A stretch of DNA of 64,000 nucleotides from Raillietiella orientalis (GCA_036172245.1 JAYWIR010000071.1:124001-188000), one strand, 5' to 3'; positions 9,485 to 35,240 are shown, counted from the first letter of the stretch. The notes: a model not told the origin generated them from the sequence alone. Made by a program: numbers and translations.

Positions 9485-9754
9485 TTATTGCATAATTGAT
9501 GTTCCTTTTTGTAAAAGCTGTGCAAATCGACCCGTGATCAATAGAGATACATCAATAAAGCGATTGACACAATTGGTCATGCATGCTTCTGAGCGACCAT
9601 CCAACTTGTTATTCATTTTACTAATGCACAGGTCCCAACACAAATCATTGAGTTGGTATATCTGAGCCTGAAGTTGGGCCTTCTGTTGCTCAAGTAGGAG
9701 AAACTGTTGGAGTTCACTGTTCTCACTTGCTGTATTGTTGTTTAAGGCAGACAT
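9485..9754 (-). CDS. TIMM8: Mitochondrial small Tim chaperone Tim8 (89 aa, no intron in the CDS)
   Basis: ELQQFL..EQQKAQLQAQI, twin CX3C motifs (CWDLC, CMTNC) and VNRFIDVSLLITGRF. A TTCCAG acceptor lies 2 nt upstream of the ATG. Confidence 0.92.
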   Translation of the reverse strand: MSALNNNTASENSELQQFLLLEQQKAQLQAQIYQLNDLCWDLCISKMNNKLDGRSEACMTNCVNRFIDVSLLITGRFAQLLQKGTSIMQ

Positions 9755-9862
9755 ACCTGGAATATATGGTAATACAATGATTAAGAGGTTAGGGGGTTCA
9801 GTGAGATCCTGCCATTCAGCAGTTCCCCCCAAATATGAAAAGTTGTACAATACATATGGATA

Positions 9863-9868
9863 TTTATT
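9863..9868 (-). promoter_or_regulatory. Putative poly(A) signal overlapping the RNGTT stop codon
   Basis: Minus strand reads ACT TAA TAAA, i.e. AATAAA overlapping the TAA stop. Confidence 0.55.
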
Positions 9869-11597
9869 AAGTTGATGTCACATCTGCTTTGCGCTTTAAA
9901 GGATTTAGATTCACTACAGAAGGGCAGATAGCACGTAATAATTCTTCCTGCAAAACTGGCTTCTTAATGCTTTCAGCCACAGATGCTGCAGTTAAATAAC
10001 TGTTAGGGAAGGATTTGTCAGTGCGTACACGCAATACTTCCCAGCTTTTACTCTGCATATTCCATGCACACTCCACAATTTGCTTGTGATATTGTTTAAG
10101 TGCCTTGCATTTGTTAATGTGGGCAAATGGAGCATCATGTCCGCCTACATACAACATAGCTACTTTATGTGGCACCACACCTTCTCCTTGTTGCTGTGCC
10201 AGCACCAGTCTAAAGTCTATAGTGTTGAGATGAGGGGGTTTCCATTTGAGCACTTGGGGACAGCAGCCAGTCATATATGGCTCCTGCACTGGCTGAAAGA
10301 TCAGTCCATCAACTTCATGAGAAACTTGCTCTTGAAATTTTGGACTAAGAAATTGAGCTGTTTGCTCTAGGCCACAAAATCGTTTTGCACGAACTCCCAA
10401 TGGTTCTTTATCTCTACGTAAGATACCTTTTTTGAGAGCTGCTATACGTGGCTTAATAATGTGCTCTTCAATACACTTAAGTCTTTTATCAAGAAACTCC
10501 TTTTTCATAGATGTATCTTGTAAATGTACAATATCATAGATCAGATATCGGGGAATAGGATGTCCACCTTTGACTTGATCAAATACCATTTCTCCATCTA
10601 GCAGTGTATCATGCAAATGACCTTGCAAGTTATTGTGCACTGGAAATGAAAGTCCCTTGATTTGGAACACACAGTTATCCCTGTCAACAAAATAAACTTG
10701 ATCTGGTCCATCAATGAGCAGCATATAGCGTGTGCCATCTGCTTTCCACGTAACCATGTATGCCTCCTGCTGCAGAAGGCCAATATTTTCCCATGTCAGT
10801 GACACAGGCTGACTACCAGGAAAGTCTTTTCTGGTGTACTCACATAATTGGCGGAGCTTAGAGTGCACCCTATTGATAACATCAGAATCTGTAACTGGCA
10901 TAACACCTGGGACATCACCATTGAGAAACTGTTTACTATGTACAGTTCTTTTTCTCATATTAGCCCCAGAACTACTTCCAGATTTGTTTGATGTATCTTC
11001 ACTTTCATTACCATCTTCTAAGCTCCACTCGGGATAATCAGGGACAGGTGGCATATCTTCATCTCCGTATTTATCGAATATCGCTTTCAAATAATCAGGT
11101 TTATAGATACCAGGTGGTCTTTGTTCTTGGAAAGCTCTCACAGCAGCAGCTGCACTCCAATCCATTTTCTCTACCAAGTAGGAAACAATAAGAAGTCCAG
11201 TCCTATTGAAACCATGAGTACAATGCACTCCAATACATTCTAAGGGTTGTTTTCTTATAAACATACTACACAACTTAATAAAAGTTCGAACTTGGTCATC
11301 TGTAGGTACTTCTCCATGACCCTTGCAATTCAGTTTAATATATTTTACACCAGCTTCCTCAACAGTTTTCTTGTCATAATACCTTGTAGTATTTGTCAGA
11401 TCAATCCATAAGCCAAGCTTTATTTTCTGATCTTGAAGGGATTGAAACAAAAGTGCTGGTGTGAAACGATACTGTAGTGGCACTTTACTATCGTAATGAT
11501 TACTAAGGGGAGTTTTAAAAGCTACAAATTTTCCTGCAATGGGATTTATAGATTTGCGGGGGCAGTTCAACCAGCGAGAAGGTAGTGGTGGAGACAT
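9867..11597 (-). CDS. RNGTT: Bifunctional mRNA capping enzyme (RNA 5'-triphosphatase + guanylyltransferase), 576 aa, single coding exon
   Basis: RWLNCPRK, P-loop HCTHGFNRTG, FPGSQPVS, motif I KADGTRY, DTLLDGEM, RYLIYDI, HEVDGLIFQP, LKWKP and RVRTDKSFPN in one uninterrupted ORF. Confidence 0.97.
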   Translation of the reverse strand: MSPPLPSRWLNCPRKSINPIAGKFVAFKTPLSNHYDSKVPLQYRFTPALLFQSLQDQKIKLGLWIDLTNTTRYYDKKTVEEAGVKYIKLNCKGHGEVPTDDQVRTFIKLCSMFIRKQPLECIGVHCTHGFNRTGLLIVSYLVEKMDWSAAAAVRAFQEQRPPGIYKPDYLKAIFDKYGDEDMPPVPDYPEWSLEDGNESEDTSNKSGSSSGANMRKRTVHSKQFLNGDVPGVMPVTDSDVINRVHSKLRQLCEYTRKDFPGSQPVSLTWENIGLLQQEAYMVTWKADGTRYMLLIDGPDQVYFVDRDNCVFQIKGLSFPVHNNLQGHLHDTLLDGEMVFDQVKGGHPIPRYLIYDIVHLQDTSMKKEFLDKRLKCIEEHIIKPRIAALKKGILRRDKEPLGVRAKRFCGLEQTAQFLSPKFQEQVSHEVDGLIFQPVQEPYMTGCCPQVLKWKPPHLNTIDFRLVLAQQQGEGVVPHKVAMLYVGGHDAPFAHINKCKALKQYHKQIVECAWNMQSKSWEVLRVRTDKSFPNSYLTAASVAESIKKPVLQEELLRAICPSVVNLNPLKRKADVTST

Positions 11598-12162
11598 TCT
11601 TCACAATCCACTTTCATGGAACAAAACAGAACAGAAAATTGAGACATTTATATCCAACATAAATGGATGAAGTCACTTATTTAATCAAGCGCTATAAGTT
11701 ACATGATTATCAATAAACCCTAGTGTTTTGCTTACAAGTTCTCCATGAATTACCATCAAAAATATTCTATACACAATAAACTGCATCAAACAATATAAAT
11801 ATCTCTACAGTATTCTTCACCCTTTTAGTCATATATGTATCTAGAAACGCAAACACACGTACTTCTACAGCTACTTACTACCAAACAAAATACAGGCCAG
11901 TTTAATTGCAAAACAATACAAATATTCGCATGTCATTAAGAAAGAGGGATCATTGAGGAATCAACGCATATAAGAATCCGCGGCTGTTTACTTTATAACG
12001 AATTTGCTGTTGTATGTAACACTAAGAGGAGGATTGAACACAAACATTGATGAGAACAAGCAGTAATTGTTTACAATGTAAGCCATTCAGAAACATCTTT
12101 TGTGTGCAACTACACTTCAAAGCAGTCTAATCATTTATGCTTCGGAAAATTATGTCCTGTTA
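10845..12162. repeat. Duplicated segment A, copy 1 (5' half of RNGTT plus ~560 bp upstream); partner 16057-17374
   Basis: Direct, near-identical sequence at offset ~5212 (ATGs at 11597 and 16809). Confidence 0.95.
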
Positions 12163-14519
12163 TTCCACTTACCAGGATGCAGTGAGTTCTTATATTTAAG
12201 GATGCACTGCCTACTAGCAAATAAGTCACACGTGGGGGTTTCCTATAGAAAACACAATATAGCCTAGCAACATACAACCGTGCAGTCATTTACCTCACAG
12301 GATCATTTTATAAAGGCAAGTGCGATAGATTGAACTACTTTAAAGTGGACTTTGAAAATTCATTCTATTAGGGGATGCTGCTGCTTTCATCATTGTAATG
12401 AAATTCACCGGCGCACTTACATGAGGAATTCAGAAATGCAATTCCGAATATTTTCGCTAATCTTCGCTTCTATGCTATTACATACTGGCTAATGACTAAA
12501 ACATAAAATATCGCAAACATGTAGAATGTTCACCAACTTCGGCCTCGAGTTCGAAGAACACGTTCAATCGAACACCCTACACTTCATTTGATAACAACGT
12601 TGCTCGGCACTGACCTCCTCCCTGACTTGCATCCTCTTTCGTGCAATGAGCTTTCGAAAGCCAATGCTCATCGTAATTTACAGTTTGCTTTTCAAATCAA
12701 ATAAGCTTGCAGAATGTTTGGGTAAATCTGGCTTGAAACATACCTTCCTGGACATAGAGTACTTTGCAATTTCATTATTATCACATTGGGTTTTACGTAA
12801 AAATTAGCATCAGATGTTTCAAATTATTATTTAAGTTATTGTTTGAGATTCTGTTTGTTCTGGCTTTACAGGTTCATTTAGATTTAGGTTCTTTACTCAA
12901 GGAAAAGATCCTTGAAATGGAAACAGGATTCGACTGCCATGATACATGTGGAATCTGATTTGATGAACATTTTCAACCATTTGACAGCGAAGCATAGAAA
13001 CCGAGAAATAACCTCAGTAAGTGAAGATTCGTCTACCTTACAGAGAAATCTGACTACTGATCGACCAATCTTACTAATGACTGCGAGGGTGTAGGAGGCC
13101 GCAAGGAAGCACGGGGCATTTCAAGAAGACTACAGCACTAATCCAAGGAAGCAGCACCGGATTCCCAGCTCGGAAGTGCAAGCACAGTGATGAATCCTGC
13201 AAATCTTCGTGTAGTCCCATTTTTTTAGTTATCCTCGAATTTGAAATACACGCATGAAGGCTGATATGAACTTCGAAAAGAAGACAACTTTCCCTCCCAG
13301 TTTTGCGGGGAAGCTATAAGGATTTATGGAGTTTCTAATACATGAGGAAGATTCGTTGTGAAGACGCGTACTCTAATCATTTTATGTAACAGGCTTCCAT
13401 TTTTGTGTGTCTTGCCTAAAGAAATTCTACGAAGATTCCCCTTCCATGCAGTTAGTTATTTTCTGTAGCTATGTATTTCTAACTTATCCATTCGAAAAGG
13501 TTTAGTAGTTGCTTTTCTTCTTTCTCAAAAGGTTGATACCCACTGAAATAACGCCTTGCATGAGATAAGTTCCATAAGTTTATTGCTTGTGACGAAGCCG
13601 AGTGGGCATGATCAAGATAAACGAATTTACAAGAATCGGAAACTTGAACCTCGAAACTCATAATCTTTTCATTAAATGCGGTCAGTCTGTAAAGTATGGG
13701 AACAATATGAGATTCTTCAGGAATTTCCAAGTATTGAAATGTCAAAGTCTACTTGGATTCTTCTCGGGTCAAATACAGTGTAATGATATGAGATAAAATT
13801 ATTCTAAGAACGTCATTTCATTAATGCATCAAAGTACTGATTTCATGGAATTTCCTTAGATGGTGTCACTCTTTTCAGATGCTCCGATAAAATAGACACA
13901 CATTACATGGAAATTCTTGAAATTACTTACTTTCAGTTTTTAACCAAGGTAAGAACGAAGCATAACCACACGAGGAAATGGGGAAATGCCGTTTGAAACC
14001 GTGTGAAAAGGCACAAGTTTTGAGTAAATGTTTTTATGGAATGCGATCAACTGAAAGTGAAACAGGCTATCACTTAAGATCAGTTGGTTTTATCCTAATA
14101 AATGTAGCGTAGTGATAAGGTTCCACTGTCATCTGAGACCAATACAAAAGTTTATCTCGCAATCACGCCAGATAAAACCTCGAACGATGGACACGAAGTG
14201 ATTGAATACCACAATTACTGGCCATCCCACGAGAAAACTTGTTGTTGCACTTTCTAAATGATGAAGTTGTACCTAGGATCGATTCACACTTCCGTATTAT
14301 CAAGACTATTTTGTGATTTGTGAAATAGCAAGTCAAAATATTTTTACTCCGTTGGAGAGAATCTAGAAGGATCTTGTCGACACACACATTCATCCAATTA
14401 AACACATTTGCAAGCAGCAGCTACTCTCCTTTGGATATTAGATTTGGAGTTGACTTTGTCCGGCATGTGATCGCAAGTTTTTGGTGGTTCCAATTCCCTC
14501 TCCTTCCAAATTTCCTTTT

Positions 14520-16047
14520 ATTAAATGTGCATTCAATTGAAATTTCTTTTCTACCAAAATCTTTTTAATACTCCATCCAGGCCTCCCAGGTTTTGCAAGC
14601 AGAGTTGAAAAATGCACTTCCTTGCGAAAGGCTTGCCAAACCGACACGAGATCTTGCCATAAAACACCTAAATCTGTGACCTAAGTTCTCCCCTACAGAA
14701 AAGACTGACCAAGTCGAATCAACAGTACATGCTAGCTTTGGGGGATACCCATGATCAAACATGATCCTAGCATGCGACTCCTGCCAAATCTGAACATGCC
14801 GTTTCTCTTTCTGGCAAACTCTTTTGCAATACGCGCACGAGAAATTCGAGATTCTTCCACTCGTTTGAATCCCATCCTCGAACTGTTTCGCACTGTTTGA
14901 AGTTTTGTCTCCATCCACGGTTTTGAAAAAACTCGTTCTCACTTGCATCCTTTGATCTTGAAACAATCAGCGAGTTAAAAACCGTGATCTGGTGCGTTGC
15001 CCCCACCGAGGAAACTTTCTCTGCTAGCTGACCAAAACATGCACTTTTCAAACGAATGTGCTTACTTGGAATGGTTATTCGCAAGAGGAGTGATTCGAAT
15101 CGTTCGAGTGAAGTAATTACATCATTCACATTCGTCATTAGCACTTGCAGCGTCTTCATCACATTGCCATTTTTCATATGCAATCGAACAATTTATTGGT
15201 CACAACACAGCAAGGGAAAAAAAACAATTTTCCTTCCTACAAAGAAATGATAATCTTGGGAAACTAGTGGATGGCCAGATGGATGAGCAAACAGATGAAA
15301 GCAGCCGTTCGTTTTGCTACCTAAGGGGACTCTTGGCCATGTAATTTTACGATATACGCTGAAGGGGTGTCATTTATGTGGCTACTTTTTTCTGTTTGCC
15401 ACACTAAACCTTCAGATGTGCATGAATTAAAAGGAAATAAGAATGCAGTAATGGGAAAACATACCGGTACATTAAAGCTGATGTTCTGTATACACTCTTA
15501 TGTGATACTCTAACCACTACTGAAAATGGCAATGTATGTATCCATCCAATGCCATATGTACAGACTTATATCTACCGTGATGCATTCAGAAATTAGTTTG
15601 AGAAAGAATTTACACTCTTGGTTTTTGTCCCCTCTTCAGTTCTTTAAGAGTTGGCGCACAACTATCTATCTAGTCTATTAAATATTAGACTGTGCTTTAA
15701 TCTCCCCTGTTTCACAAATGCTTACAAACAAAAAATAAGCAGAAGAGCAAACAAAACAGATTTATTTCTTGAGAAGGAGCTTTGTTTTCAAAATCTCTCA
15801 AATTTCCTTTACACATTAGAAGACAATTTTCAAGGAGTGATGATAGATACCATAGTAAATATTTTAAACAGGGCATCAAAGGTTGAAATTTGTTACTGCT
15901 TATGCTTTATTAGCAGCTGAAAATTAACATCAAACATGTATGAGTATTTTAGCAAATCATTTCTATGTAAAGTACACTGAATGTTTGCAGAAACAGAATA
16001 AACAGAATCTTGGGCATACAACTGTGCCCTTAAAAACAAAATGCAAA
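14520..16047. repeat. Duplicated segment B: copy of Hippo intron 2 (33267-34740) plus a Hippo intron-1 fragment (~35032-35081), with exon 2 deleted
   Basis: 14520-15993 matches 33267-34740 at offset 18747 with only a few substitutions (paired near-identical ORFs in the track). 15998-16047 matches 35032-35081. Confidence 0.95.
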
Positions 16048-16809
16048 TTACAAATGTAATTGGCTGAGCTTAGAGTGCACCCTATTGATAACATCAGAAT
16101 CTGTAACTGGCATAACACCTGGGACATCACCACTGAGAAACTGTTTACTATGTACAGTTCTTTTTCTCATATTAGCCCCAGAACTACTTCCAGATTTGTT
16201 TGATGTATCTTCACTTTCATTACCATCTTCTAAGCTCCACTCGGGATAATCAGGGACAGGTGGCATATCTTCATCTCCGTATTTATCGAATATCGCTTTC
16301 AAATAATCAGGTTTATAGATACCAGGTGGTCTTTGTTCTTGGAAAGCTCTCACAGCAGCAGCTGCACTCCAATCCATTTTCTCTACCAAGTAGGAAACAA
16401 TAAGAAACCCAGTCCTATTGAAACCATGAGTACAATGCACTCCAATACATTCTAAGGGTTGTTCTCTTACAAACATACTGCACAAGTTAATAAAAGTTCG
16501 AACTTGGCCATCTCTAGGTACTTCTCCATGACCCTTGCAATTCAGTTTAATATATTTTACACCAGCTTCCTCAACAGTTTTCTTGTCATAATACCTTGTA
16601 GTATTTGTCAGATCAATCCATAAGCCAAGCTTTATTTCCTGATCTTGAAGGGATTGAAACAAAAGTGCTGGTGTGAAACGATACTGTAGTGGCACTTTAC
16701 TATCGTAATGATTACTAAGGGGAGTTTTAAAAGCTACAAATTTTCCTGCAATGGGATTTATAGATTTGCGGGGGCAGTTCAACCAGCAAGAAGGTAGTGG
16801 TGGAGACAT
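16048..16809 (-). CDS. Truncated RNGTT paralogue: intact 253-aa ORF with the RNA triphosphatase domain only (functional gene or young pseudogene)
   Basis: Near-identical to RNGTT residues ~1-250 with HCTHGFNRTG intact. It ends HSKLSQLHL* at the duplication junction, before FPGSQPVS. AATAAA on the minus strand at 15906-15911. Confidence 0.75.
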   Translation of the reverse strand: MSPPLPSCWLNCPRKSINPIAGKFVAFKTPLSNHYDSKVPLQYRFTPALLFQSLQDQEIKLGLWIDLTNTTRYYDKKTVEEAGVKYIKLNCKGHGEVPRDGQVRTFINLCSMFVREQPLECIGVHCTHGFNRTGFLIVSYLVEKMDWSAAAAVRAFQEQRPPGIYKPDYLKAIFDKYGDEDMPPVPDYPEWSLEDGNESEDTSNKSGSSSGANMRKRTVHSKQFLSGDVPGVMPVTDSDVINRVHSKLSQLHL

Positions 16810-17374
16810 TCTTCACAATCCACTTTCATGGAACAAAACAGAACAGAAAATTGAGACATTTATATCCAACATAAATGGATGAAGTCACTTATTTAATCAA
16901 GCGCCATAAGTTACATGATTATCAATAAACCCTAGTGTTTTGCTTACAGGTTCTCCATGAATTACCATCAAAAATATTCTATACACAATAAACTGCATGA
17001 AACAAATATAAATATCTCTACAGTATTCTTCACCCTTTTAGTCATATATGTATCTAGAAACGCAAACACATGTACTTCTACAGCTACTTACTACCAAACA
17101 AAATACAGGCCAGTTCAATTGCAAAACCATACAAATATTCGCATGTCATTAAGAAAGAGGGATCTTGAGGAATCAACGCATATAAGAATCCAAGGCTGTT
17201 TACTTTATAACGAATTTGCTGTTGTGTGTAACACTAAGAGGAGGATTGAACACAAACATTGATGAGAACAAGCAGTAATTGTTTACAATGTAAGCCATTC
17301 TGAAACATCTTTTGTGTGCAACTACACTTCAAAGCAGTCTAATCATTTATGCTTCAGAAAATTATGTCCCGTTA
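16057..17374. repeat. Duplicated segment A, copy 2; partner 10845-12162
   Basis: Direct sequence match as above. Confidence 0.95.
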
Positions 17375-18292
17375 CACCCTGCTGGTTGATTCACTCATCT
17401 CAATTGAGACAACCGTGGGGCCGGGCGCCACATCAGCGGAAAGGGGCAGCAGCTTTGCCTCTGCCTAGAGGGAGACACGATTAAATTTGGAGCTAAAATT
17501 ATTAGCGATAAACTTGGAACTACGTCTGTATAATGTCAAATGGAATACAGTTTCGAGATTTATAAAATTCACATTCTCTGACATTTCTGGTAGAAGCAGT
17601 TTGCATATCACAAACAAAAATCACAAATCGAGTTTTCGAGGCTTTAAAAAATTGGTAGATGGAAAACATTGGAAATAATTACCAAACAAGAAAAAGTAAA
17701 TTAACAGGGCTATTCATGCTGATGCTGTTTTCTGGACCTCAACATCTTTCAAGAACCGTAAGTCAACTGCGTTGCAAGAGAAAGTCGTTTCTCAAGTACA
17801 TCCCATTTTTCTGTTACGTCCCAGTTTCTTCGAACAAAGAAGATAACTTCCGGCATTCCAGCATTTGGGTGTTAAATCACGGAATCCGAAATACGAATGT
17901 TTACTTTCAGTTTCTATTGAAATCACATTATTGGCCTTATAAGCTTTATCAAGCAGGGTGTAATGGAACTTGCACCATGGATGTGTACACTCAAAACTGC
18001 AGAAAGGGTGTATTTATGAGCTAAAATACTGGCTTTGAGTACTGTGGATAGATGTTTGGGAAAGAGTGCAACTCTGTGGCCATATGTTCAATATTAAAGA
18101 ACTTGAGACTTTTAGGATAAAATACCAGTTATAATTGCACTGCAACTTTAATGTCATTCCATGCTTTACCAAAAAAGCAAAAATAAAATTGCATCAACAA
18201 TTCTCAAATTCATAAAAATGAATGAAGGCAAGAAATTCTAGAACTTGGAATTTCATGTTTGTGTCATTTCAATATCAAAAGAGAGGTCAAGA

Positions 18293-20655
18293 TCACGACT
18301 GTGACAGCTCAAGTATTTTGTCTCCATGCAAGCTATCTGTGAAATAGGGAATTTGCAGTACATTGTTGAAGTATATTTTCTCCATTGGAATGTTAACAGT
18401 CCAAGCAAGTACATGAATACCTTTTCTATGGTATGACTGTATTACTTCCCTAAAAAAATCTATGAGTAAAAGTTTCTCAACCAATCATTTGATCTTACAT
18501 ATTAAGCACATCCTTGTGCAAAAGTACTGCTGAAAGTCCCAAATAGTCCCAATAACAGTTCTGGAAAAGCCAGTCATGAATGACATCTACAAGAATGGCT
18601 AAGTAATGCTTAAACCAGGAAGAGAAATATGGTCTAGAGCATCCTTTAATGCCACTGTAGTTCTCATATGAGAAGAATTTTGGCCTCCATGCCAAACAGC
18701 AAATAATTTCAGGTTCATTGGATCTAATCTAGAAAGATTTGTAAAATTTAAAATGCAAATAAAATTTCCTTCACAATTACAACTTGCCTGATAAATGAGG
18801 TGAGGATAAAAAGAGGTTACGACAGCAACTTTAAAAAGAGCTGGATATTTGTGGAACATGTTGATAACTGTGGACACACTCTAGAATTAATTTATAACAG
18901 ATGAGAAATATAAATGTACTCACTTTATATGTAGGGGATTTCAAATCAATGAACATTTTTAAACCTATATCCAAGCAAGTACAGATTCCCTGCTCAAAGG
19001 TGGGAATTTTCTCCCCAACAAATTTTTCTCTGAGTGATGAAAGTACAGGTATTGATGTCTGGAAAAATGTGAAGTGCCATTCTTACCCATAAATGGTATT
19101 TGACCCAATATCGAACTTTTCTAGTTCTTCATATGTGATTTCGGATATTTTTCCAGTTCCATTTGTGATTCTGTCAAGAGTGTTGTCGTGGAACAAAACA
19201 GGCACCCAATCTTTGGTGAATGAAAGATCAAATTCCACTGCATGACAATGGCATTCTTTGCACTGAAATGAGAAAGAGGTTCCTTAAAATTAGCACTCAC
19301 AGATCCATCATCACAAGGAATTATTAAATGTCTGGATTTAAGTATTATGTGCAACAGGTAACAAACATGGAATATAATTTAGTTTACCTTCATTTTTTGA
19401 TGTTTCCAGATGCAAAACAAACAATGATCATACCACTCATATATCTTTTTAAAATTTATACCAAAATTCCATGATATTTACTCAGTGAATTGTGTTTTCA
19501 GTTTGATAATCAAGATGAGCTTTTATTACCAATATCGTACGCAAATTTTTCCCAAACTGGAAAATTCCCTTCCCTCCCTCCTTGAAGCTCTTGACTGTAT
19601 CGCTTGACACATGAAGCTTACTGAAACACTCCTATGACTCTGTTTAACCCAGTAAGATAATTCCATATTAAAGATGCAGTCATGCTTTCATTGCATACAG
19701 ACATCACAATATAATAAGTAGCTTGGAAACTGGATATTGCAAATTACTAAATTCAGTGCATTATTTGTTACGCACATTAATGAAGTGATTCTTCAACTAT
19801 TCTTTCATAGCACTCAGATTGAGGATCCTCAATTGATTCGAGATATGATGAAGTAATACATTCTACCATTCACAGTAAAATCTTTCTTTTAGGGGCAAAC
19901 AGCAACTACATAATCACAAAAAGGCAACCCATTTCCTGACTATTGAAGGCAAACTTAACCAACCAAGGAAAAAAGTCCGCTTTCCGTTACTTGTAGACAT
20001 ATACCTTTTACAATGTGTAACATTGCAATTGCTGCGGTATTTTTTGGTCACAGAATTCGTTTTTCACTCTCTCATTATCGCTCAAGCTGGAGGAAAAGCT
20101 TTTTATCTGTCACAGTTGCACCGTACACCAGAGATCGGAGAATTTTCGTTTTACGTCCAGCTGCTGCTGCATTGCCTTTGTCCACATATTCCATCTTAAA
20201 TATTTGGCAGGAAGAGTCGAGGCTTTTTCGTTTCATGTTTCTTATCGTTTATACTCATGCTACATTCTGGTGTGCTTCGTGGAAACAATCAAAAAATTCG
20301 AGTTTCAACACCGTTGGCAACGTAATTACTAAAAGTCCACTCCTACCTTACGAAATGCTGAGATGCTGTTTTCCGGAGCATCCAAACATGCTCCACGGTG
20401 GGCGATCACATCGATCTTGCTAAAAGATGCAGACTGTGCCTGGGCATCGGGCTTTTTGATGGGGCCGAAAAATTCCTCCACAGCTTCCAGCGGAGGGCGT
20501 TCCAAACGAGTTTTGTACAGTGAAAAGAATAGTATTGCAAAAGAACTTCCGATCCACAGAACAGTGTCCACTTTGATGAAGAGCAAATCGGTGTAAACGA
20601 TATGTGCGACATAGAAGCACGTCCAGATAAATGCACCGTATTTCAGCAGAAACAT
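18293..20655 (-). CDS. GDE1: Glycerophosphodiester phosphodiesterase (GDE1/MIR16-like), 6 exons
   Basis: N-terminal hydrophobic segments, VIAHRGACLDAPENSISAFRK, AVEFDLSFTKDWVPVLFHDNTLDRIT, GEKIPTFEQ, FIDLK, VVTSFYPHLIY and VLAWTVN. Confidence 0.9.
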
Positions 20656-23600
20656 ACTTCAGCAGCAGCTCACTGGAATTTCCGTGGTCATGTTCAGTGG
20701 AAGCACAGCACGAGCACACTCACAAAACCTTCGGCGTATGCAATCTCCATAGCTTTGTTGTTTGTTTCAGAAAGGTTTTTTTTGCTGCCACGAATTTTTT
20801 TGCACGAAGTTCGCAACGATGCCCGTGAGGTCGCTTCGGCGTGTGCCCCGTTGATCTCCGGGCTGCCACCCCCTCTCCCAAATTATTTATCAACCTTACA
20901 TCCGACAAAGATTTTCATAAAAACGAAGCCGTGCAACGGCACCCCGATTCAGCACCACCGGAGAAAGCAGACTCCCTGCAACGGATTTCAGGGGAAGATC
21001 ATTGGTACGGGCAGCTTCCAGATGTGGAGATTGAGATTCCCTAGTTGCGCAAAGTAATCTTCCAAGTGAGCCCTCACCGTGGAAACCGATGTCCAAAGAG
21101 TGGAATTGGTTTCGAAATTCCGCAAATAAAAAATGACACGCAGGCTGGAGCGTGCTTTTCCTTTTCCACGTACTCGCTTCTCGCTTCTTCTGTGAAAATT
21201 TCACTTCATAAATAGTGAAGGTTCGATCTTTCGGGATTGGTACTGAAACTGGGATTTTAAATGACAAGAACCAAGAAGTGAAATCAGTGATCGTTGATTC
21301 AATCGTGTTGAATAAACAACTGATGGATTCAAGTGCGGCTAAACTGCTAACTTGATTTACTTCTTGATTTTCAAATCATGGCAGCAGCACTGCAACCTGG
21401 GTCAAAGGACATCTTGATAACTCTGCACATTTTTGTCAGCATAATTCTTCTCGAATTCGTACACAGAAAGCAATTTTGAATGCTGACGTAGAAGTTTGTG
21501 TGATTTATCTCCTCGTAGAAATGATTACCGCTGTAGCAAAACGGCACACTTCTGATTGTAGATAATGTCTCGAGAATACAAATTTAATAAGACTACTTAA
21601 ACCGGAATGCCGCCCGGATTTTTTGGAACTCTTTCCCTTCCGCTCGTCCTCAGTTAATTGCTCACTTATTCTCACTCTTGAGCAGCTCACAAAAACTGTT
21701 TGTTCGTGTTTCTTGATATTAGTTTAGCTTATTTCACTCATAATATAGTTTTCAGCTTTTCCGAAATATTTTTTTGCGCAGTCCGTGGGATTGTTTTTTC
21801 GTATCTTTGCTTGCTTGTCAAATCGATAAGGAGATTTTGCTGATGTGATGAACGCCTCTTCTACGATAACATCTGAAATGTCCTACAAAGGATTTGAGTT
21901 CTCTGTTTTCATTTGTACAGCGAACTTTGACGTGCTTCTGAAATAAACATGCTTTCAACAAGTAATCAGCTTTCTCAACTTCACAGATTTGTTCAAAAAC
22001 GCCCGTTTTCGGTACTTCCCTTGAACGAACAAGGACTTCTGGTGGGTTTTCTCATCCTACAGTACCAAAGAACTCGAGTTATTTGATTGCAAGTCGTGCT
22101 AATCAATTTTTCAACCTAGAGGAAGGACTTTTGTAGGATGTTACTAGAACCCATTTTAGCAGGATAACGCCAACGTCAGACAACTAAGTGCTCCCCGAAT
22201 ATTCAAAAAAAAAGAAAAGAGGGATGGGGGGAGGAGGGGGAAGAGAGAAGCCTCTTAGTTCTGATATGATGAAGTTACTATTATTTGATGATTGCATGTG
22301 TAAAAACATACAATAAACGAAATATACAAGCCGATATATTTTTCGAATGAAAAACAAGAAAGAAAGAAATGTTAAAAGTTTCTGCCAATCAGTGCTACAA
22401 GCAGGAAAAAAATAGCTTCCTAGAAGCGTCGCATGTAATTTAATTTCTCATTGGCATCCATTATCCAAGTATTGCAGTTCTCCCTTCCTTCGCCTTCAAT
22501 GTCTGTGACTGATGATGTGCGGACAGACTTCTGTGATACGTCTTCAAACTTATTGCAAAACTTGAGAGGACGATGTCCTCAAGAATTTCGTCAAGTAATT
22601 GACAAGACTTTGCAAAAGATGAGGAGCCAGTCGGCAATGAAGACGTACATCAACTTCCACCTCCCGATGGCACGATTTTAAGTGGTCCTCAGGTTTTCAG
22701 CACACGAGAATTCCGAGAACTCAAAGTCAGTGGACCCAGAACAGTCATCTGCTTGTGGATTTCCAAAAGTGTGCGCTTTGAGAGAGGGAGAAAAAAAGGT
22801 TGAGCTACTGGACCAAGCTATCCTGAAATTCTGGACCAGCGACATCCTAGCGGTACCCTCGGGTTCCTGAGATTCTGCTGCTTCTGATCCCGTCTCCTCT
22901 TGCCAACGGTGTACGCGTTTCCACGGGCAACCTCACGACTGCTTTTCGCGCATACGCTTGCCTTCGTACGAGACGAGAAACTTCACCCGTTTGGCAAGTT
23001 GTGCGACTGCCCTTCCAATGATCTTCACTCTATCCCGGACTGAAGCCGTAGACGAAGAAGCGAATGGAAGAAGCCTTAACGGAAGAGAAGGATTGCTCGA
23101 CTTCCTGAGAGCTGATGACGTCAGACCGAAGAATACTTCCAGCATTTTGGCTGAAAATCACCAAACTGCTCCCCTTCCCTCCCACTTCTAATTCGCGAGC
23201 ATCCTTTTCCGTCGACTACGTACATTTTCTCTGGGCATCCAGGACCAATCGTATTTGCCGTGCAAGGTCAGCGAGGGCGTAACCAATGAAAGACCTCGCA
23301 ACTTATGGGGTAAAGGAGTGTGCAGGGGCGGACTTTGCAGGATGCGGTCCACACGTGGGAGAGAGGAAGGGAAAATGGGGAGGGGCACAGATGCACGCCC
23401 GGGATGCGCTTAACCGTCGGTCCGTCGCCTTCACGAGTGGTCTCGTGAGGAACGAGGAAAGGGGAAAGAAGCAAAGGGTGGTCTGCGTGCTCCTTGCGTG
23501 GGCGCTCCTCCGTTACAGCGAAGGAAAGCTCTCCGCCCCTCCAGGGCGGGTTCGCCGGAAGACTGGAACCTCGCGTTAGAAGGGACCCACCCTCAAGGAG

Positions 23601-24898
23601 CCGGGAACGTGTCCGTCTTGCCGATCCAGAACTGCACGGCGAAGGATTCTCCCATCGAGGAGCCCGGGGGATGGACGTGGCCAGCTTGGATATGAAGGCG
23701 AAACTAGTGCCGGGTGGACGACGGAGGGGGGACACACCCGGAGGACACAGCCAGCCTCCCGGGAGGCGAAAACGCTCGTCTGTCTGCAAACTGCGTGCCC
23801 GCGCGCGCGGAGCGGCTGATGGAGGAGAGGAGGAGGCCAAGCCTCCCACTCACCCCCTTTCTTTGCCCGGGAAGCTTCCCGCAGGAGATGGGTGCGTCCG
23901 CATGTGGATCAGCACCATGACGACGACAGCCAAGCGTCGGTCCTCCTACCACCGCTGGTCCTCTTGCGCGCTGGGCGCAAAGTGCCATAGAGCCTCCGCC
24001 TCTGCGAACAGGGATGAGGGAGAGACTCGGCTGGAGAGACCACCGGAGGGTCCTCGCAGTCAGGAGCACCCTCGAAGTAGAAAGGGCGAGAGCGAGCGGA
24101 AATGGGTCGAGCCGCCCCGCGGAGGAACAGGCCACGAGTCGTCGCCAGTTTCCAGGGTAACGCCCAGCTCCGGGCGCGCGAGGACGGTCGATTCGCGGGC
24201 GCCGCGTAACTTTGGTGACTGCTGACGTTTCCTCTGTGGCAGGGAGAGCACGCAACCCACTCGTCCACTCCCTGCCCTTGCAGCCCTGCAGCAGGACCCT
24301 CCACCCGTTCCCGTTTCTCTAGGAAGGAGAGTAAGACTTGAAAGGAAGGGAAGGAAGCGAAGAGCGGCCCTCCGGCAGCGAGCAGGCTCAGCCGCTGCCA
24401 CGATCTCCCCACGCCGCAGCCCCTTGGGGGGATCCCCCCAGCTTGCAGCCACTCCGATGCTAAACCGATGTGGCAATCGGAGTCCTTCTGTGGTACTACC
24501 ATCTCGACGGACTCGCGCTCCGGTCGATGCGATGCCTCCGCCACCCACCTCAACCACTCAGTACTCTTCACGTCCACCATTCCATTCCTTGGAATACGCC
24601 GTCCATACCACCCATGCAGACCCTTTTTATGCCAGGCAACGAACCGCGCCTCGCCGGTCCTTCGTTCCGGCCGGAAGGGAGAGCGGCAGGCCAGAAACCG
24701 CGAGCAGCGAGGGCGCAGCCGTCGCTCTTGCAGTCGGAGGTCAGGGGGAGGGGAGAGGAAGGCGAGTCCACGGCGAGGGCAGGGTATGGATGGATGGAGA
24801 GGAGAGGGCGCATTCCGATGTCCCGCAGCTGGGCCCGCGGATGGCAGGCGGTCGGAGGAGGAGGAGGAGGAGGGAGGGATGACGGAATCACCGAGTCG

Positions 24899-27800
24899 TC
24901 AGAAGTTCTGCTGGCGCTTGCGCTTATCATCTATGGCGTCGAGGATGGGCTGGCGCTTCGACTGGTACCTGCGCCGCAGCTCGTCCATCTCGAGCTCCAT
25001 CTCCCTGTCCAGGCGGGACATCCTCTCCTGCAACTCTTCGCAGCTCAGCTGCGCCAGCTGCTCGCCCCGTTAGTGAGAGCGACAAATCCCGGGAAGGAAA
25101 AAGAGGAGAGGGAGGGGGAAGCAGAGACTACGAGGAAGGAGAAAAAGAGAGGAGGGGAAGGAGAAGGAACCAGGAAGGCGAAGGGAGAATGGAAAAGAGG
25201 AGGAGGGGGGGGGGGAACGCACGAGCGCAGCACCAGCACTCACAAAGTCGAAGTTGCCGTCTGTGAAGGACCTGCCGCCAGCCTTCGGCGCGGCGACGAC
25301 ATCCGTCGGGACGTCAGAATGGTGCTGTGACGGGTTCCTCTTGGCTCCCACGAGCACTGACGGCGGGATTTGGGAGATCTGCTGGAGCTGCAGCTGCTTC
25401 TCGGGCTGAGGCAGGCAGCTGTCCCGACACTGGTCCACCAGAGGCTCGCTCTCCCGGATGCCCTACCGATCAAAGGATCATGCGGCTCGGCCTTCAGGGA
25501 ATAGGGTGGGGAGAAAAGGGGAGGAAGCGAACCTCTTTCCTTTCGAAGTGATCCAGGAAGAGCGGCCTGTAGTCAGGGACGTCTCCCGGGACGGTGTCGT
25601 GCCCTGGAACGGGAAGAGGGGGAGCCGCGCGCAAGGTGAGGTACAGACGCGCGGTCCCTGGCATTACTCTTCATCGTAGAGTCCTCCGGCTCCCCGTCCG
25701 AGTTGATGACCATCGTGTCCAGGTGGGATTCCACGTCGCTTAGAGCCTCTCCGCAATTCGAACGGAGCTTGCCGCTGCCACCACCGCGGCGGAGCTGGCA
25801 GCCGCCACCCTCACTGCCGTCGAAAGGCAGCGCCGTTGCTGTCCCCGAGCTTCCGGGTCTGAGTGTCCCCTCCTCCTCCTCTTCCTCTTCCTCCTCCTGC
25901 TGCTGCTGCTGCGAGCGGCTGCGCTTCCCGGAGACGCCGTCCTCGGAGGAGTTCTGAGCAGGCATCGTCGCATCCCCTCCCGCGTCCTCCCACCTCCTTC
26001 GATGGGGTGACGAGGGAGCGGGAAAAAAGGAAAAAAAGAAAACGGGTGGACCCCCACTCACCGCCGCAGCTCCGGGTCGCTGCTGCCGCGTCATCGCCTT
26101 CATCTTGCTCTCGCGCACCTCCAGTGCCTCCGCAATCATCTGATTAAGGATGCTGGCGGGCTGGGAGTTAACGATGAACTCGTGATGCAGCAGGTGACTA
26201 GCAGTCGCTCTCTCCTGTGGGTTCTTCACCAGGCACCTGGAGACGGGTCATGTGAGGGAGGGCGCCCTCACCTGGGTGCAAGGAGTGAGTGAGAGGAACG
26301 GTGGGGAGAACTGGGGGGGGAAGGGGCACAGGATCGTTCCCAGAAAAACAGAGAGCGAGAGCATGAAAGGTGGGCGGAGAGGATGAAGACACCACGCCCC
26401 TCCTAGAAGGATGCCCACCTTCTATCGAGTTGCCGGGATGCTGTCTCCGCAAGACAGCGTGCACGCAAGCGGGATGAAGCCAAAATCCGAGAAGAGCGTC
26501 GGGAATGTGGTAAGTGGAGAAGGATCCATGCTCTGTGCCTCTCCGATCCGGTCTTCCCGGAAAACGGAAGCGGAGTGCGTGAGAAGGAACGCTTCTTCTA
26601 CCTGGCGGAAGATGTCGTCGGAAAGCGAAGAGCTGGAGAGGGATAAGGAGAGAGTAGGAGTAGGAAGGAGAAAGAGCTGCGCGCGCTGCCACCTCTCTTC
26701 CTCAAGATGGCCAGTCGCGGTCACGAAAGGTGAAGTGCGGCTGGTGGATGTGTGTGCACCGCTAGCGCCAAGAAGGAGCCCAGTCTGAGCTGGTGGCGAG
26801 CGAGCGTGCGAGCAAATCTGGCCGAGCCAACGACCGCAAGACCCTGGCGCGACCCTCATGAAAAAAGTCTGGATGCATGCGCCTCACGTGTGGCCACGGC
26901 GCCACGATCCTTGACGTTGGTAACGGGGTCCCCGCCTGCTTCCCGTAGACCACCACCACGAGGTCAGGCAATCTGGGCTACTTCTCCCCCTCCTCCCCTG
27001 CCGAAAAGGAAAAACAAGAGCCTAAAGTCCGACCTAAAAGTCCAATCGCCACCTGTAGAGTCCACTGATGGTTCTCCAGAACAGAGCAAAGGGGCTACAA
27101 TGGGTGATCCCCAACTATCGTATGAGAGGCACAGAACACACGTACCTTCGTGGGAGCGCGCTAAGGCTTGCTGGAGACCACTGAGGGAATGAAGTTTCAA
27201 AGGTGGTAACCAAGCAGCGAAAATCCCCTAAAGGGAGAGAACGGTGCACACCAGTAGGTTGCCGAGGGGATGTGTGCCGACCCAGTAGGTTGCCGAGGGG
27301 ATGTGTGCCGACTGAATGCTTACAGGTGAGCGCAAGCAAGCGTTCGACACCCTATTCCCTCTCCAATCCTTTCGTGCCGGTACGAAATGGGTCGATGTTG
27401 AAGATGGCGTCCTGGGCTAGCGGATGCGCGCACCCAAAAGAAGTGCATCCGCTCCCCTCTTACACGAGCTGGCTGTGATATTGGCACAAAAAACAACTTC
27501 TCGAATGTTGGATTCTGCCCCGGCACCTCCGATCGGACACACGAGTCACATTCGTGGAAGGTGTCCTATAGGAAAAGCTCCGCCGCGAGGCTGCAGCATC
27601 CCAACAGAGTGCCTTGAAAGGTCACGAGCACCTTCGCCAAAAGAGGGGAACCCCACCGCTATCTGAGCCAAGGCAGGCAACGTCCTGTTGAACGTAAAAG
27701 GACTCAGGAACGTAAAAGGGTCTTGGGTCTCACCGACCAGCCACGGTATGTAAGAAAGCTAGCAGTGCGCGGAGGAGGCAATCTCAAGAGAGTGACCCTT

Positions 27801-30800: not shown

Positions 30801-33800
30801 CTGACTCTTTGTGCAACGCTTTGTACACGCTACCATACGACCTATAACGAGATACAAAACAATCTCAAACGGAGGATCCGCTACTCGTGAACCACGTGCT
30901 TCCGTTGCAAGCGCAGAGGGAACGTTTTTTTTTAAAAAAAAAAAAAAATCCCCCGAACGCATGATCATTTTTGTGTGGGAAAGAGCATCTCTTTCACACC
31001 AACGCTGCTAACGAGAGGCGCTCCAAACGTGTAGTGCGCTCTGCCATACTCCCTTAAATGTTTGCAGAATGTGCTTCAGGAAAGTCTGGAAAATACTGCC
31101 ATTTTCCCCAACACTTCCAGGAAATAACGGAATGTCCACTCTGGTGGAGCCAGTGAGAGGGCACCACGAGCGAAAAATGGAGGCGGGAGGCGCCTCTTTA
31201 CCAGTTAGCCCACTCACTGAGGTATATACCTTGAAGTACAGGATCCCATGAGTGAAGACACTGTTTTCACCTCATCAGGGCATCAGAAATAAGCAAACGA
31301 GACCATTCAAGAATGCCTTTCCCGAATCACTTGCCAATTTCCCGCTTGATCACTCTACTGTCACGACTTCTGATTGTAGTCAATTCTCATAAAGGATGCA
31401 TTCGAATCTTCGATTTTCACGTCCATAAAAAATGATTGATGGTAACAAAGATTAGGCATCGGTTGATGTCGTTAAAGTTGTGGAAGAACACAAGAGCTGA
31501 CAAGGAAAACCGTGTAAACAAAGCCCTTTTTCAGAACATTTTTCAGGAGTATTCTTCGTGGTTTTCCAGGTGCGACCGCTAATGACAAAGAATGTGCAAT
31601 AGTCTGATGTTTTCGAAAAGTGTGCTCAGTTCACACCGTAGCTCAGGTCACCTTCGATTACTGATTCAACCTTTGGGATTAACGACAGAAATGCAGCTCT
31701 GCACCATCTAGGCTTGGAATTCGGTAGGTGTGTTTACATCCATCATCTGTTTCTCTTGGCGATACGAAGACGTCTCTCCAGCGTGTTTCAAGCAAGGATT
31801 TCTAGCACTCAAATTGGAGAAAGTGGGGAAGAAAAGCAAGTCTGTCAACAGCAAGCACTTCAACCCACTTACATGAGATGCTCTTCATAACCAGTTCTCT
31901 TTTCAGCCGACGCGAAAGTGTAAAAAGTAATAATCCAAAGTGGAAAGTCTAAAATGGAGCACAGAGATGTTGCCAAATGAGGCGAGGCACGGAAAAAGAT
32001 TAAGGCAAATGAAAATGTTTTTGAAATGGGACTGAAAGCCTTAGAACAGCAATGAGAGGCAGGAAAATGAAAACAGTAAAACGCAGCCGAGGTCCAAGAG
32101 ATCCCGGGATTGAGATCATGCATCGCCCGAAGTGCAAACTGGTTCCATGGGAAAAGGAGCGGCAATCCATAAAGGCAGCAAAGGTGGCTTTGCTGCCTTT
32201 ATGGTGCAGCCTTTGGACACGAAGAGAAATACTGCCTGCACGATGAAGTTTCAGGCACACTCGAGACAGACAACAGATGAAGGTGATCTGATTTGGGATC
32301 AGTGCTTCCGGGTTGAGAGCAGGAAGGCACTGGTCGATTCGTGTGTTTCGAGAGCAGAACGCAGGCAAAACATGGATCGCGAGCGAAGCAGAACAGGAAT
32401 AGTCCTTCCCGAGTGCGCCACAGGCAGAACAGACACAGGAAGTTCGGAACAACACGGTTCTGATAATTCGTTATTATTATTACCTCCCTCCAGTACAGCA
32501 TCTCAAAATGCCTAGACAGCTCAGTACCGACATCGCTCATGGGTACTAGTCTACGCGCTCCACTAGAGTTCCAAAAATAATGCATTTTACAGGAAAATGC
32601 AGCAGTCGTGCAAAATGGTTTCCAACAAGAAATTGTGAATTGAATAACAATTATAAAACCGGAAATTGCATTTATCCGTGAAAATAATTACAACCCGTGA
32701 GAAATTGCCTAAAAGCGACAGATCTGCTGAGAGAACCTTCGAAGACAAGGATCACTGCGAGCATTGCAAGGGTTCAGAATAATGTCATCCTATCCCGAGA
32801 ATAATCATTATCACGTCAGATTCGTAAACGAGGAAAAGGGGAACCTGAAATGCATCGGAGTTGAGCAATTGAAACACAAGGCACGGAACAGAAGAAGGAA
32901 GAAAGAAGCTTGCTAGAAATCAAAACGGAAAGTTCGACTCATCTTCCGGAAGAGGGGGAGACGACAGTTCCACGAAATGCTAACCTTCAAAGTAAATGTC
33001 TCCTATCTCGTCCTACACAACTCCTTGTATTCTTCGTTCACTTCCTCCTCCCCCTCATTCACTAAAACACGCGACTCATTTTTTACAGGATCGATACGCG
33101 TTGAAAATGCTATCCAAGACCGAGAAATTACCGGCTCCACTGTCTGCTCCACAGGAGAACTGAGGATACTTTCATCTCTCCGCGGCGAAGACCAACTCTT
33201 GGGCTGGAAACTCCCGCACTTCGGCATGTGATTAACTCTCCAGCATTCACAGGTTGGTTTCCTTGCATTAAATGTGCATTCAATTGAAATTTCTTTTCTA
33301 CCAAAATCTTTTTAATACTCCTTCCAGGCCTCCCAGGTTTTGCAAGCAGAGTTGAAAAATGCACTTCCTTGCGAAAGGCTTGCCAAACCGACACGAGATC
33401 TTGCCATAAAACACCTAAATCTGTGACCTAAGTTCTCCCCTACAGAAAAGACTGACCAAGTCGAATCAACAGTACATGCTAGCTTTGGGGGATACCCATG
33501 ATCAAACATGATCCTAGCATGCGACTCCTGCCAAATCTGAACATGCCGTTTCTCTTTCTGGCAAACTCTTTTGCAATACGCGCACGAGAAATTCGAGATT
33601 CTTCCACTCGTTTGAATCCCATCCTCGAACTGTTTCGCACTGTTTGAAGTTTTGTCTCCATCCACGGTTTTGAAAAAACTCGTTCTCACTTGCATCCTTT
33701 GATCTTGAAACAATCAGCGAGTTAAAAACCGTGATCTGGTGCGTTGCCCCCACCGAGGAAACTTTCTCTGCTAGCTGACCAAAACATGCACTTTTCAAAC

Positions 33801-35240
33801 GAATGTGCTTACTTGGAATGGTTATTCGCAAGAGGAGTGATTCGAATCGTTCGAGTGAAGTAATTACATCATTCACATTCGTCATTAGCACTTGCAGCGT
33901 CTTCATCACATTGCCATTTTTCATATGCAATCGAACAATTTATTGGTCACAACACAGCAAGGGAAAAAAAACAATTTTCCTTCCTACAAAGAAATGATAA
34001 TCTTGGGAAACTAGTGGATGGCCAGATGGATGAGCAAACAGATGAAAGCAGCCGTTCGTTTTGCTACCTAAGGGGACTCTTGGCCATGTAATTTTACGAT
34101 ATACGCTGAAGGGGTGTCATTTATGTGGCTACTTTTTTCTGTTTGCCACACTAAACCTTCAGATGTGCATGAATTAAAAGGAAATAAGAATGCAGTAATG
34201 GGAAAACATACCGGTACATTAAAGCTGATGTTCTGTATACACTCTTATGTGATACTCTAACCACTACTGAAAATGGCAATGTATGTATCCATCCAATGCC
34301 ATATGTACAGACTTATATCTACCGTGATGCATTCAGAAATTAGTTTGAGAAAGAATTTACACTCTTGGTTTTTGTCCCCTCTTCAGTTCTTTAAGAGTTG
34401 GCGCACAACTATCTATCTAGTCTATTAAATATTAGACTGTGCTTTAATCTCCCCTGTTTCACAAATGCTTACAAACAAAAAATAAGCAGAAGAGCAAACA
34501 AAACAGATTTATTTCTTGAGAAGGAGCTTTGTTTTCAAAATCTCTCAAATTTCCTTTACACATTAGAAGACAATTTTCAAGGAGTGATAATAGATACCAT
34601 AGTAAATATTTTAAACAGGGCATCAAAGGTTGAAATTTGTTACTGCTTATGCTTTATTAGCAGCTGAAAATTAACATCAAACATGTATGAGTATTTTAGC
34701 AAATCATTTCTATGTAAAACACACTGAATGTTTGCAGAAAACTTCCTCAGTACTACACATTTAAAATACTTCATCTTGTTCAACTGATCAATCTAGTATG
34801 TTTTACTTTAGTGTTTAATATCAACTTTTCAACCATGAAGCCATATCCACAATTATCCAATTCAAAATAATCTGCAAAAGTGTTTACCCTTCTCCTAATT
34901 TGCAGATAATATCAAACACTTCTTCTGGCTGGCGTGTAAGACTTTCTTCAGATAATTTTCTGAGTTCCCTGAAAATCAGATTAATATTGATCCCCAATAT
35001 CACATCAAAAGAAACATCTTTTCTCAGCATCATAAACAGAATCTTGGGCACACAACTGTGCTCTTAAAAACAAAACGCAAACTACTATAATTTGCAAATT
35101 TAAGCAATTCAATCACACCGCTTCAACCAAAGTGCTAACATTGGGAAGTTGATTACTTATTTCAAAATGTGCCTTTAGTGTGGATCGTATTTGGCCGATG
35201 TGTACTTACTCGCCCTATTTTACCCACGGCTCATGTTCAT
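24899..35240 (-). CDS. STK3: Hippo/MST1-2 (STE20-family) kinase with C-terminal SARAH domain; about 11 exons: 35240-35224, 34968-34888, 30841-30661, 30610-30383, 30336-30231, ~30161-30013, 26236-~26061, 25953-25667, 25603-25533, 25462-25244, 25057-24899
   Basis: [100 protein letters not shown], and [55 protein letters not shown]. Exon 1 is provisional. Confidence 0.93.
27251..27312. repeat. Perfect 31-bp tandem duplication in a Hippo intron
   Basis: CCAGTAGGTTGCCGAGGGGATGTGTGCCGAC x2. Confidence 0.9.
33267..34740. repeat. Source of duplicated segment B (within Hippo intron 2); partner 14520-15993
   Basis: Direct near-identity with 14520-15993. Confidence 0.95.

Follow-up and report, generated by a model that had tools for sequence, protein, structure and literature searches.

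The open reading frame on the minus strand at 16048..16809 raises the question of whether one domain of an essential bifunctional enzyme has become a gene of its own, or whether its reading frame is simply too young to have been lost. It lies ~5.2 kb from the full-length mRNA capping enzyme gene, on the same strand, within the window (the whole 64-kb stretch of DNA that was analyzed). The sequence-only reading of this DNA proposed a nascent stand-alone enzyme resembling PIR-1, with the caveat that a very young pseudogene would look similar. The reading preferred here, at a probability of about 0.6, is that of a real, young, DNA-mediated chimeric partial duplicate, the ORF of which is open by youth, drifts neutrally, and is probably nonfunctional.

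The frame is initiated by an ATG and runs through 253 codons with zero internal stops. It comprises the RNA triphosphatase domain, the linker, and the first helix of the guanylyltransferase part. Compared with the full-length capping enzyme, hereafter called the parent, the encoded protein is identical in 241 of 251 residues (96%) in a gapless BLASTP alignment, which agrees with the earlier statement that the copy has neither a frameshift nor an internal stop. Residue 251 is followed by the new residues H and L and a new stop, i.e., by two codons and a stop and not by the three codons past the junction that had been counted before. The copied extent within the capping-enzyme piece is 753 bp of CDS and 566–569 bp upstream of the ATG. 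Together with the DSPc domain found by Pfam, this bears out the claim that the copy keeps the ATG, ~560 bp of upstream sequence, the whole cysteine-phosphatase domain, and the linker. The features of the copy and of its two source loci are the following:

16048..16809 (stop included), minus strand: ORF with ATG start, 253 aa (translation, BLASTP, Pfam)
16810..17378, minus strand: copied noncoding DNA 5' of the ATG of the copy, matching 11598-12166 with 14 substitutions and two one-base indels
16051..16057, no strand assigned: junction between the capping-enzyme and kinase-intron pieces, with a short AATTA(T) microhomology common to both sources; imperfect join
15994..15997, no strand assigned: 4-nt filler, CAGA on the plus strand, which replaces 291 bp of the source (34741-35031) including the kinase exon
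15906..15911, minus strand: AATAAA from the kinase intron (source 34653-34658)
9867..11597 (stop included), minus strand: parent, an intronless 576-aa bifunctional mRNA capping enzyme (single ORF, Pfam)
10845..12166, minus strand: copied part of the parent locus (self-BLAST plus extension)
33258..34740, minus strand: donor of the 1483-bp piece, within the intron that separates the exon 34968-34888 from the exon starting at 30847
35032..35085, minus strand: donor of the 54-bp piece, within the intron that precedes the 81-nt exon
34888..34968, minus strand: 81-nt kinase exon with a ttttcag acceptor and a GTAAAC donor (pattern scan), missing from the copy

The ORF is part of an insert of 2.87 kb (14511-17378), which lies in the spacer that separates the capping enzyme gene from a GDPD-family gene and represents a three-piece chimera. 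Self-BLAST of the window yields three matches, all direct and collinear with each other:

16057-17374, from 10845-12162: capping-enzyme piece, 1319 columns, 24 mismatches, 2 gaps, 98.0% identity
15998-16051, minus strand, from 35032-35085: kinase-intron piece with the new stop codon, 54 columns, 4 mismatches, 0 gaps, 92.6% identity
14511-15993, minus strand, from 33258-34740: copy of kinase-intron DNA, 1483 columns, 6 mismatches, 0 gaps, 99.6% identity

The capping-enzyme match extends to 17378/12166 with two further mismatches, and the flanking DNA (12163-14510 and 17375-18300) showed no further repeat in the window when BLAST was run at higher sensitivity. The proposal that a partial duplicate of the capping enzyme is fused to kinase-intron DNA is, thus, confirmed by all three matches. 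The intron DNA comes from a minus-strand locus 18.7 kb from the copy, in which Pfam detects Pkinase in the exons at 30049-30864. The sources of the 1483-bp and 54-bp pieces flank the 81-nt exon of this gene and are therefore both intronic. The exon that follows begins at 30847, behind a ttatag, with the residues SYGSVYK. Downstream of the ORF, an AATAAA is found 137 nt past the stop, identical in the intron source. Hence, the AATAAA that had been described at ~140 nt downstream in Hippo intron sequence stands as to its distance and intronic origin, and a kinase domain is confirmed in the donor gene, whereas its assignment as MST/Hippo is putative, from similarity of the exon peptides.

Within the duplicated intron DNA, the segment 14568-15192 (source 33315-33939, both on the minus strand) is open over 133 and 141 codons in two overlapping frames, which match no Pfam family and are probably chance frames or a decayed element. 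The window also contains blocks with a G+C content of 57–65% at ~22000-30000 and ~38000-44000, compared with a background of 31–39%. They lie partly within kinase introns and around the kinase exon 25576-26247 and show long open frames on both strands. A coding role of the blocks at 22–30 kb and 38–44 kb was rejected, as 0 of 30 scanned ORFs match any Pfam family. A 31-bp unit is repeated twice at 27251-27312.

The parent shows the complete architecture of a bifunctional enzyme, with DSPc, mRNA_cap_enzyme (PF01331, residues 263-453, E 2.2e-65), and mRNA_cap_C (PF03919, E 1.1e-18) detected by Pfam. Its CDS has no intron, whereas the neighboring CysRS, GDPD, and kinase genes are split. No entry in the protein collections is more than 52% identical to the parent protein, and judged by such matches, the lineage of this organism is essentially unsampled there. 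The stop of the parent (9869-9867) overlaps an AATAAA (9868-9863). Only 112 nt beyond the capping enzyme, an ORF of the Tim10/DDP family (Tim8-like) begins with an ATG at 9754, with ttccag two bases before it (9752-9869, minus strand), and this spacing looks operon-like or trans-splice-like. The kinase gene (~35 kb), the GDPD gene, both capping-enzyme copies, the Tim8-like gene, and the CysRS gene, i.e., every recognized gene in that span, are encoded on the minus strand. Herein, the GDPD-family gene (GDPD matches at 19086-19283 and 18296-18484) has its stop 1.5 kb upstream of the copy. Farther away, an exon with a syndecan domain at 44197-44673 (minus strand, Pfam Syndecan E 2.3e-22) ends in EFFA. 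This exon and the kinase, GDPD, CysRS, and Tim8 genes mark the window as animal DNA. Rfam gave 0 matches over the whole window.

With regard to the origin of the insert, several simple routes were considered and rejected. A retrocopy or processed pseudogene is excluded, since neither a poly(A) tract nor an A-run was found at either insert end, and since 566 bp from upstream of the ATG and 1.5 kb of a foreign gene's intron sequence are part of the insert. The lack of introns is uninformative in this respect because the parent CDS is itself intronless. A simple tandem duplication would not produce the spacings of 5212 and 18747 bp. The 1.5-kb repeat was rejected as a transposable element, as it has no terminal repeats or target-site duplication, is accompanied by a second collinear piece, and carries ORFs without any Pfam family. 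The junctions themselves show, in addition to the AATTA(T) microhomology, a TTTCCTT microhomology with the source flank at the left end (14511) and the CAGA filler, which adjoins a repeated TTCTGTTT. Mismatch density is raised beside every junction; in the 1483-bp piece, four of the six mismatches lie beside junctions and two elsewhere. The exact 38-nt junction sequence gave 0 matches in a search of metagenome contigs. The arrangement points to a DNA-level, microhomology-mediated complex rearrangement that would have placed the 2.87-kb chimera between the GDPD-family and capping enzyme genes, likely by replication-based template switching or by alternative end joining. In such an event, the break would have occurred after capping-enzyme codon 251, and the frame would have been closed two codons on, in kinase-intron DNA.

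Two splice-donor-like hexamers accompany the breakpoints at the parent locus. GTAAGT (12167..12172, minus strand) lies directly 5' of the copied segment and was not copied, and GTGAGT (10838..10843, minus strand) lies within the parent CDS, 1 nt past the end of the copied segment. GTRAGT occurs at 0.59 per kb on this strand, and the probability that both breakpoints fall ≤1 nt from such a motif is ~1e-5 before post-hoc correction.

The predicted product of the copy consists of one enzymatic domain. Pfam detects DSPc and Tc-R-P only, and no guanylyltransferase or OB domain. The P-loop HCTHGFNRTG (residues 125-134) is the same as the human and mouse loop, and Cys126 and Arg132 are kept; these catalytic positions are occupied by C in 135 and by R in 136 of 144 representatives. 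All 29 listed invariant columns of a 50-sequence alignment are likewise kept in the copy. In a phmmer search against the PDB, the human and mouse capping enzymes rank first (8p4b, E 8.7e-75; 2c46, E 3.1e-74; 1i9s, E 1.1e-72), and residues 5-205 of the copy align with 6-207 of the 210-residue crystallized domain 1i9s, whereas PIR1/DUSP11 follows at about E 1e-22 and the baculovirus phosphatase at 6e-19. The AlphaFold model, built on the 50-sequence alignment, has a mean pLDDT of 86.1, with values >90 over most of 11-190, a disordered stretch at 197-226, and a terminal helix at 238-252. Foldseek likewise places 2c46 and 1i9t on top (target TM 0.90–0.93, 55% identity; 2c46_A with E 2.8e-27 and TM 0.90), compared with a target TM of 0.83–0.88 for PIR1/DUSP11 (32–33% identity) and BVP (29%). 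By alignment and predicted fold, the ORF encodes a triphosphatase domain of the capping type and not of the PIR-1 type.

This assignment bears on the reaction to be expected, as enzymes of the capping type with this fold cleave off the gamma phosphate of pppRNA without a metal. Domains of capping enzymes are described as removing the gamma phosphate, and members of the PIR-1 family as removing the beta and gamma phosphates (10.1101/2020.08.03.235143). The OB fold of RNGTT is reported to dock on Pol II and to bind the N terminus of the triphosphatase domain (10.1101/2023.08.09.552658), and the metazoan triphosphatase is stated to be invariably linked to a guanylyltransferase (PMC5027499). The product of the copy, if made, would probably be a gamma-phosphate triphosphatase acting on pppRNA, and it would be devoid of the guanylyltransferase/OB part, through which the full-length enzyme docks on RNA polymerase II.

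Whether this domain is maintained can be judged from the 12 differences between copy and parent in the 753 copied coding bases (copy-specific variants are found, e.g., at 16788, 16638, 16514-16464, 16133, and 16065). Ten of these are nonsynonymous and two synonymous, at 594 nonsynonymous and 159 synonymous sites counted, which gives a dN/dS of 1.34 (NG86) or 1.55 (LWL85). The nonsynonymous share of 10/12 compares with 0.79 expected under neutrality (one-sided test for a deficit, P 0.76), and the divergence of the CDS (12/753) does not differ from that of the upstream DNA (12/564; Fisher P 0.53). Neither dN/dS, nor the nonsynonymous share, nor the comparison with the upstream DNA carries a signature of purifying or positive selection on the ORF, at the low power that 12 differences afford; with just this number, weak selection of either kind may be present. 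The very young pseudogene that had been mentioned only as a caveat fits these values better. The open frame itself is not evidence of function because chance alone would suffice: with 6, 9, and 12 random substitutions in the parent CDS, 76%, 66%, and 57% of the simulated sequences retained an open frame. That the frame has been maintained is weakly hinted at by the indels, of which there are 0 in the copied CDS versus 2 in the 566 bp upstream, with ~2.7 expected (P about 0.07).

The ten replaced positions were polarized by aligning both copies with the 120 best full-length orthologues, which are distant (48–52% identical), the closest proteins being just 50–58% identical. No protein in the collections is more than 58% identical to the copy ORF. 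The states in these 120 sequences are as follows:

position 8: copy C, parent R; R in 120/120; copy derived
position 58: copy E, parent K; K in 113/120; copy derived
position 99: copy R, parent T; S or T in 111/120; copy derived
position 101: copy G, parent D; E or D in 117/120; copy derived
position 114: copy V, parent I; I in 64, V in 5; copy probably derived
position 116: copy E, parent K; K in 39, E in 3; copy probably derived
position 135: copy F, parent L; F in 117/120; parent derived
positions 108, 226, and 249: copy N, S, and S, parent K, N, and R; mixed; ambiguous

The derived sites are, thus, distributed 6:1 between copy and parent, which is not significant (one-sided binomial 0.06) but is what a constrained parent and an unconstrained copy would be expected to give. 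The weight given to R8 and K58 derives from their conservation. The replacement at position 8 need not inactivate the enzyme, to judge from more remote sequences: among 144 distant representatives, 90 are aligned at this position, with R in 45, G in 18, K in 7, N in 6, S in 5, and D in 3, and the copy retains the adjoining P6 (88/90) and W9 (90/90). At position 135 (11193-11195 in the parent, minus strand), directly after the P-loop, it is the parent that has Leu and the copy that has the ancestral residue, with Phe or Tyr in 136 of the 144 distant representatives. The nascent PIR-1-like enzyme of the sequence-only reading is not borne out by the dN/dS of 1.3–1.55, the replacement of conserved residues mainly in the copy, a frame that could be open by chance, and a sequence of the capping type. 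Following the preferred reading, the ORF would be intact only through its youth and would drift without detectable purifying selection; the copy presumably lacks a function and is best described as a pseudogene in waiting, at most as a proto-gene.

The strongest of the alternatives, in itself unlikely, is that the copy has become a new, expressed gene, the product of which is a stand-alone RNA 5'-triphosphatase that acts on pppRNA away from RNA polymerase II or modulates capping. In its favor, the ORF is intact and was duplicated with the surroundings of its ATG and the 566 bp before it. The domain is complete, confidently folded in the model, and equipped with its catalytic loop, the CDS is free of indels, and the changes concentrate close to the loop and helix at the active site. 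In the mammalian capping enzyme, the triphosphatase domain is catalytically autonomous when isolated, which suits a stand-alone product. Transcription would start from the copied upstream DNA or would depend on read-through from the GDPD gene or on trans-splicing. The run of genes on the same strand and a YAG just before the ATGs of the capping enzyme and Tim8 make cotranscription conceivable. Against this, the coding sequence shows no signature of purifying selection, and residues conserved in the 120 closest orthologues were replaced mainly in the copy. Moreover, the GTAAGT just outside the copied DNA suggests that the 566 bp may be a 5'UTR intron. If it is a true donor of such an intron, the copy is without the first exon and promoter, which were left behind; a stretch of pyrimidines and then AAAG precedes the ATG as a candidate acceptor, a poorer one than the ttttcag and ttatag of the kinase introns. 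The AATAAA downstream of the ORF is weak evidence for 3' end formation because the motif is common by chance (1.05 per kb and strand where the window is AT-rich) and derives from the sense strand of an intron in the source.

A second alternative concerns the history of the insert and is likewise unlikely. Herein, an older and perhaps longer, even full-length, duplicate was truncated later by kinase-intron DNA, or one old event was followed by gene conversion of the 1483-bp piece. It is suggested by the uneven divergence of the pieces: the interior of the 1483-bp piece has two mismatches, whereas the capping-enzyme piece has 24/1317 and the 54-bp piece 4/54, and the differences between 6/1483 and 24/1317 (Fisher P 3e-4) and between 4/54 and 6/1483 (P 2e-4) are significant. 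With an origin in two steps, the triphosphatase-only state would therefore be much younger than the duplicate. A recent truncation is, however, at odds with the 54-bp piece, which abuts the CDS and is the most diverged of all; in this one genome, it favors an old junction and a later conversion of the long piece.

The distribution of the coding differences is itself uneven. Six of the 12 fall within 51 nt, in codons 99–116 (P 0.005, simulation), and comprise five replacements and one synonymous change. In the AlphaFold model, these codons correspond to the loop before helix 100-116 and to that helix, which leads to the active-site strand. A>G on the sense strand accounts for six of the 12 coding differences. 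The clustered differences, the A>G changes, the mismatch density at the junctions, and the GTRAGT breakpoints could reflect error-prone template-switch synthesis, a conversion tract from a third copy, or selection. The most far-reaching interpretation, and a quite improbable one, is that of a newly born, expressed stand-alone RNA 5'-triphosphatase that would be a recent, independent re-run of the origin of PIR-1/DUSP11. The cluster at codons 99–116 would then be an adaptive retuning of substrate handling, the loss of R8 would follow from the release of the OB-fold contact, and the GTAAGT/GTGAGT breakpoints would hint at a splicing-related intermediate or at bound U1 snRNP. That the insert results from misassembly (a chimeric read or a mis-join) or exists as a structural variant on only one haplotype is very improbable. 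The divergence of 6/1483, 24/1317, and 4/54 is odd for one event and would suit this reading. Against it, the capping-enzyme piece differs from its source by 26 substitutions and just two one-base indels, which does not resemble the errors of a misassembled read, and most coding changes are nonsynonymous, which alleles of an essential gene would not be expected to show. In addition, microhomology or filler is present at three junctions, as is seen in genuine rearrangements, and the flanks are unique in the window.

The kind of event that gave rise to a young chimeric duplicate is well known, and the copy is another instance of it. Its value lies in being a well-resolved case of a chimeric, microhomology-mediated partial gene duplication with an ORF that is intact by youth alone. 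The insert may serve as a marker in comparisons of populations or sister species, and it calls for caution in annotation, as the copy will be called a "dual-specificity phosphatase" gene. If expressed, it would capture domain fission of an essential bifunctional enzyme at its earliest stage, which is rarely seen, and would provide a natural test of a polymerase-untethered capping triphosphatase on cellular or viral pppRNA.

Among known systems, nothing pertinent to truncated RNGTT paralogues was found in the literature among the matches listed. In the protein collections, a 267-aa "mRNA-capping enzyme-like isoform X2" of Daphnia pulicaria and similar entries end, as the copy does, in the same linker before the guanylyltransferase. 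However, these triphosphatase-only entries are predicted isoforms or partial models of intron-containing genes and are ≤58% identical to the copy. ARHGAP11B, which arose from ARHGAP11A, is described as a truncated copy of a catalytic domain with a few novel terminal residues (PMC5142801) and, hence, resembles the copy. Its expression and function are demonstrated, whereas the copy has a neutral-looking substitution pattern. PIR-1/DUSP11 and the baculovirus BVP/PTP (4jmj, 4nyh, 4mbb, and 1yn9) are stand-alone enzymes with the same cysteine-phosphatase fold and act on pppRNA. They are just 29–33% identical to the copy (E 1e-19 to 1e-22) and form an old, separate branch. The closest relatives are the triphosphatase domains of Mce1/RNGTT (1i9s, 1i9t, 2c46, and 8p4b), which have the HCxxxxxR(S/T) loop and the fold in common with the copy. 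In these, the domain is fused to a guanylyltransferase and an OB fold. The fusion of the triphosphatase to PF01331 and PF03919 that characterizes the bifunctional capping enzymes (RNGTT/Mce1/CEL-1) is present in the parent, whereas the copy consists of the triphosphatase domain in an unfused form.
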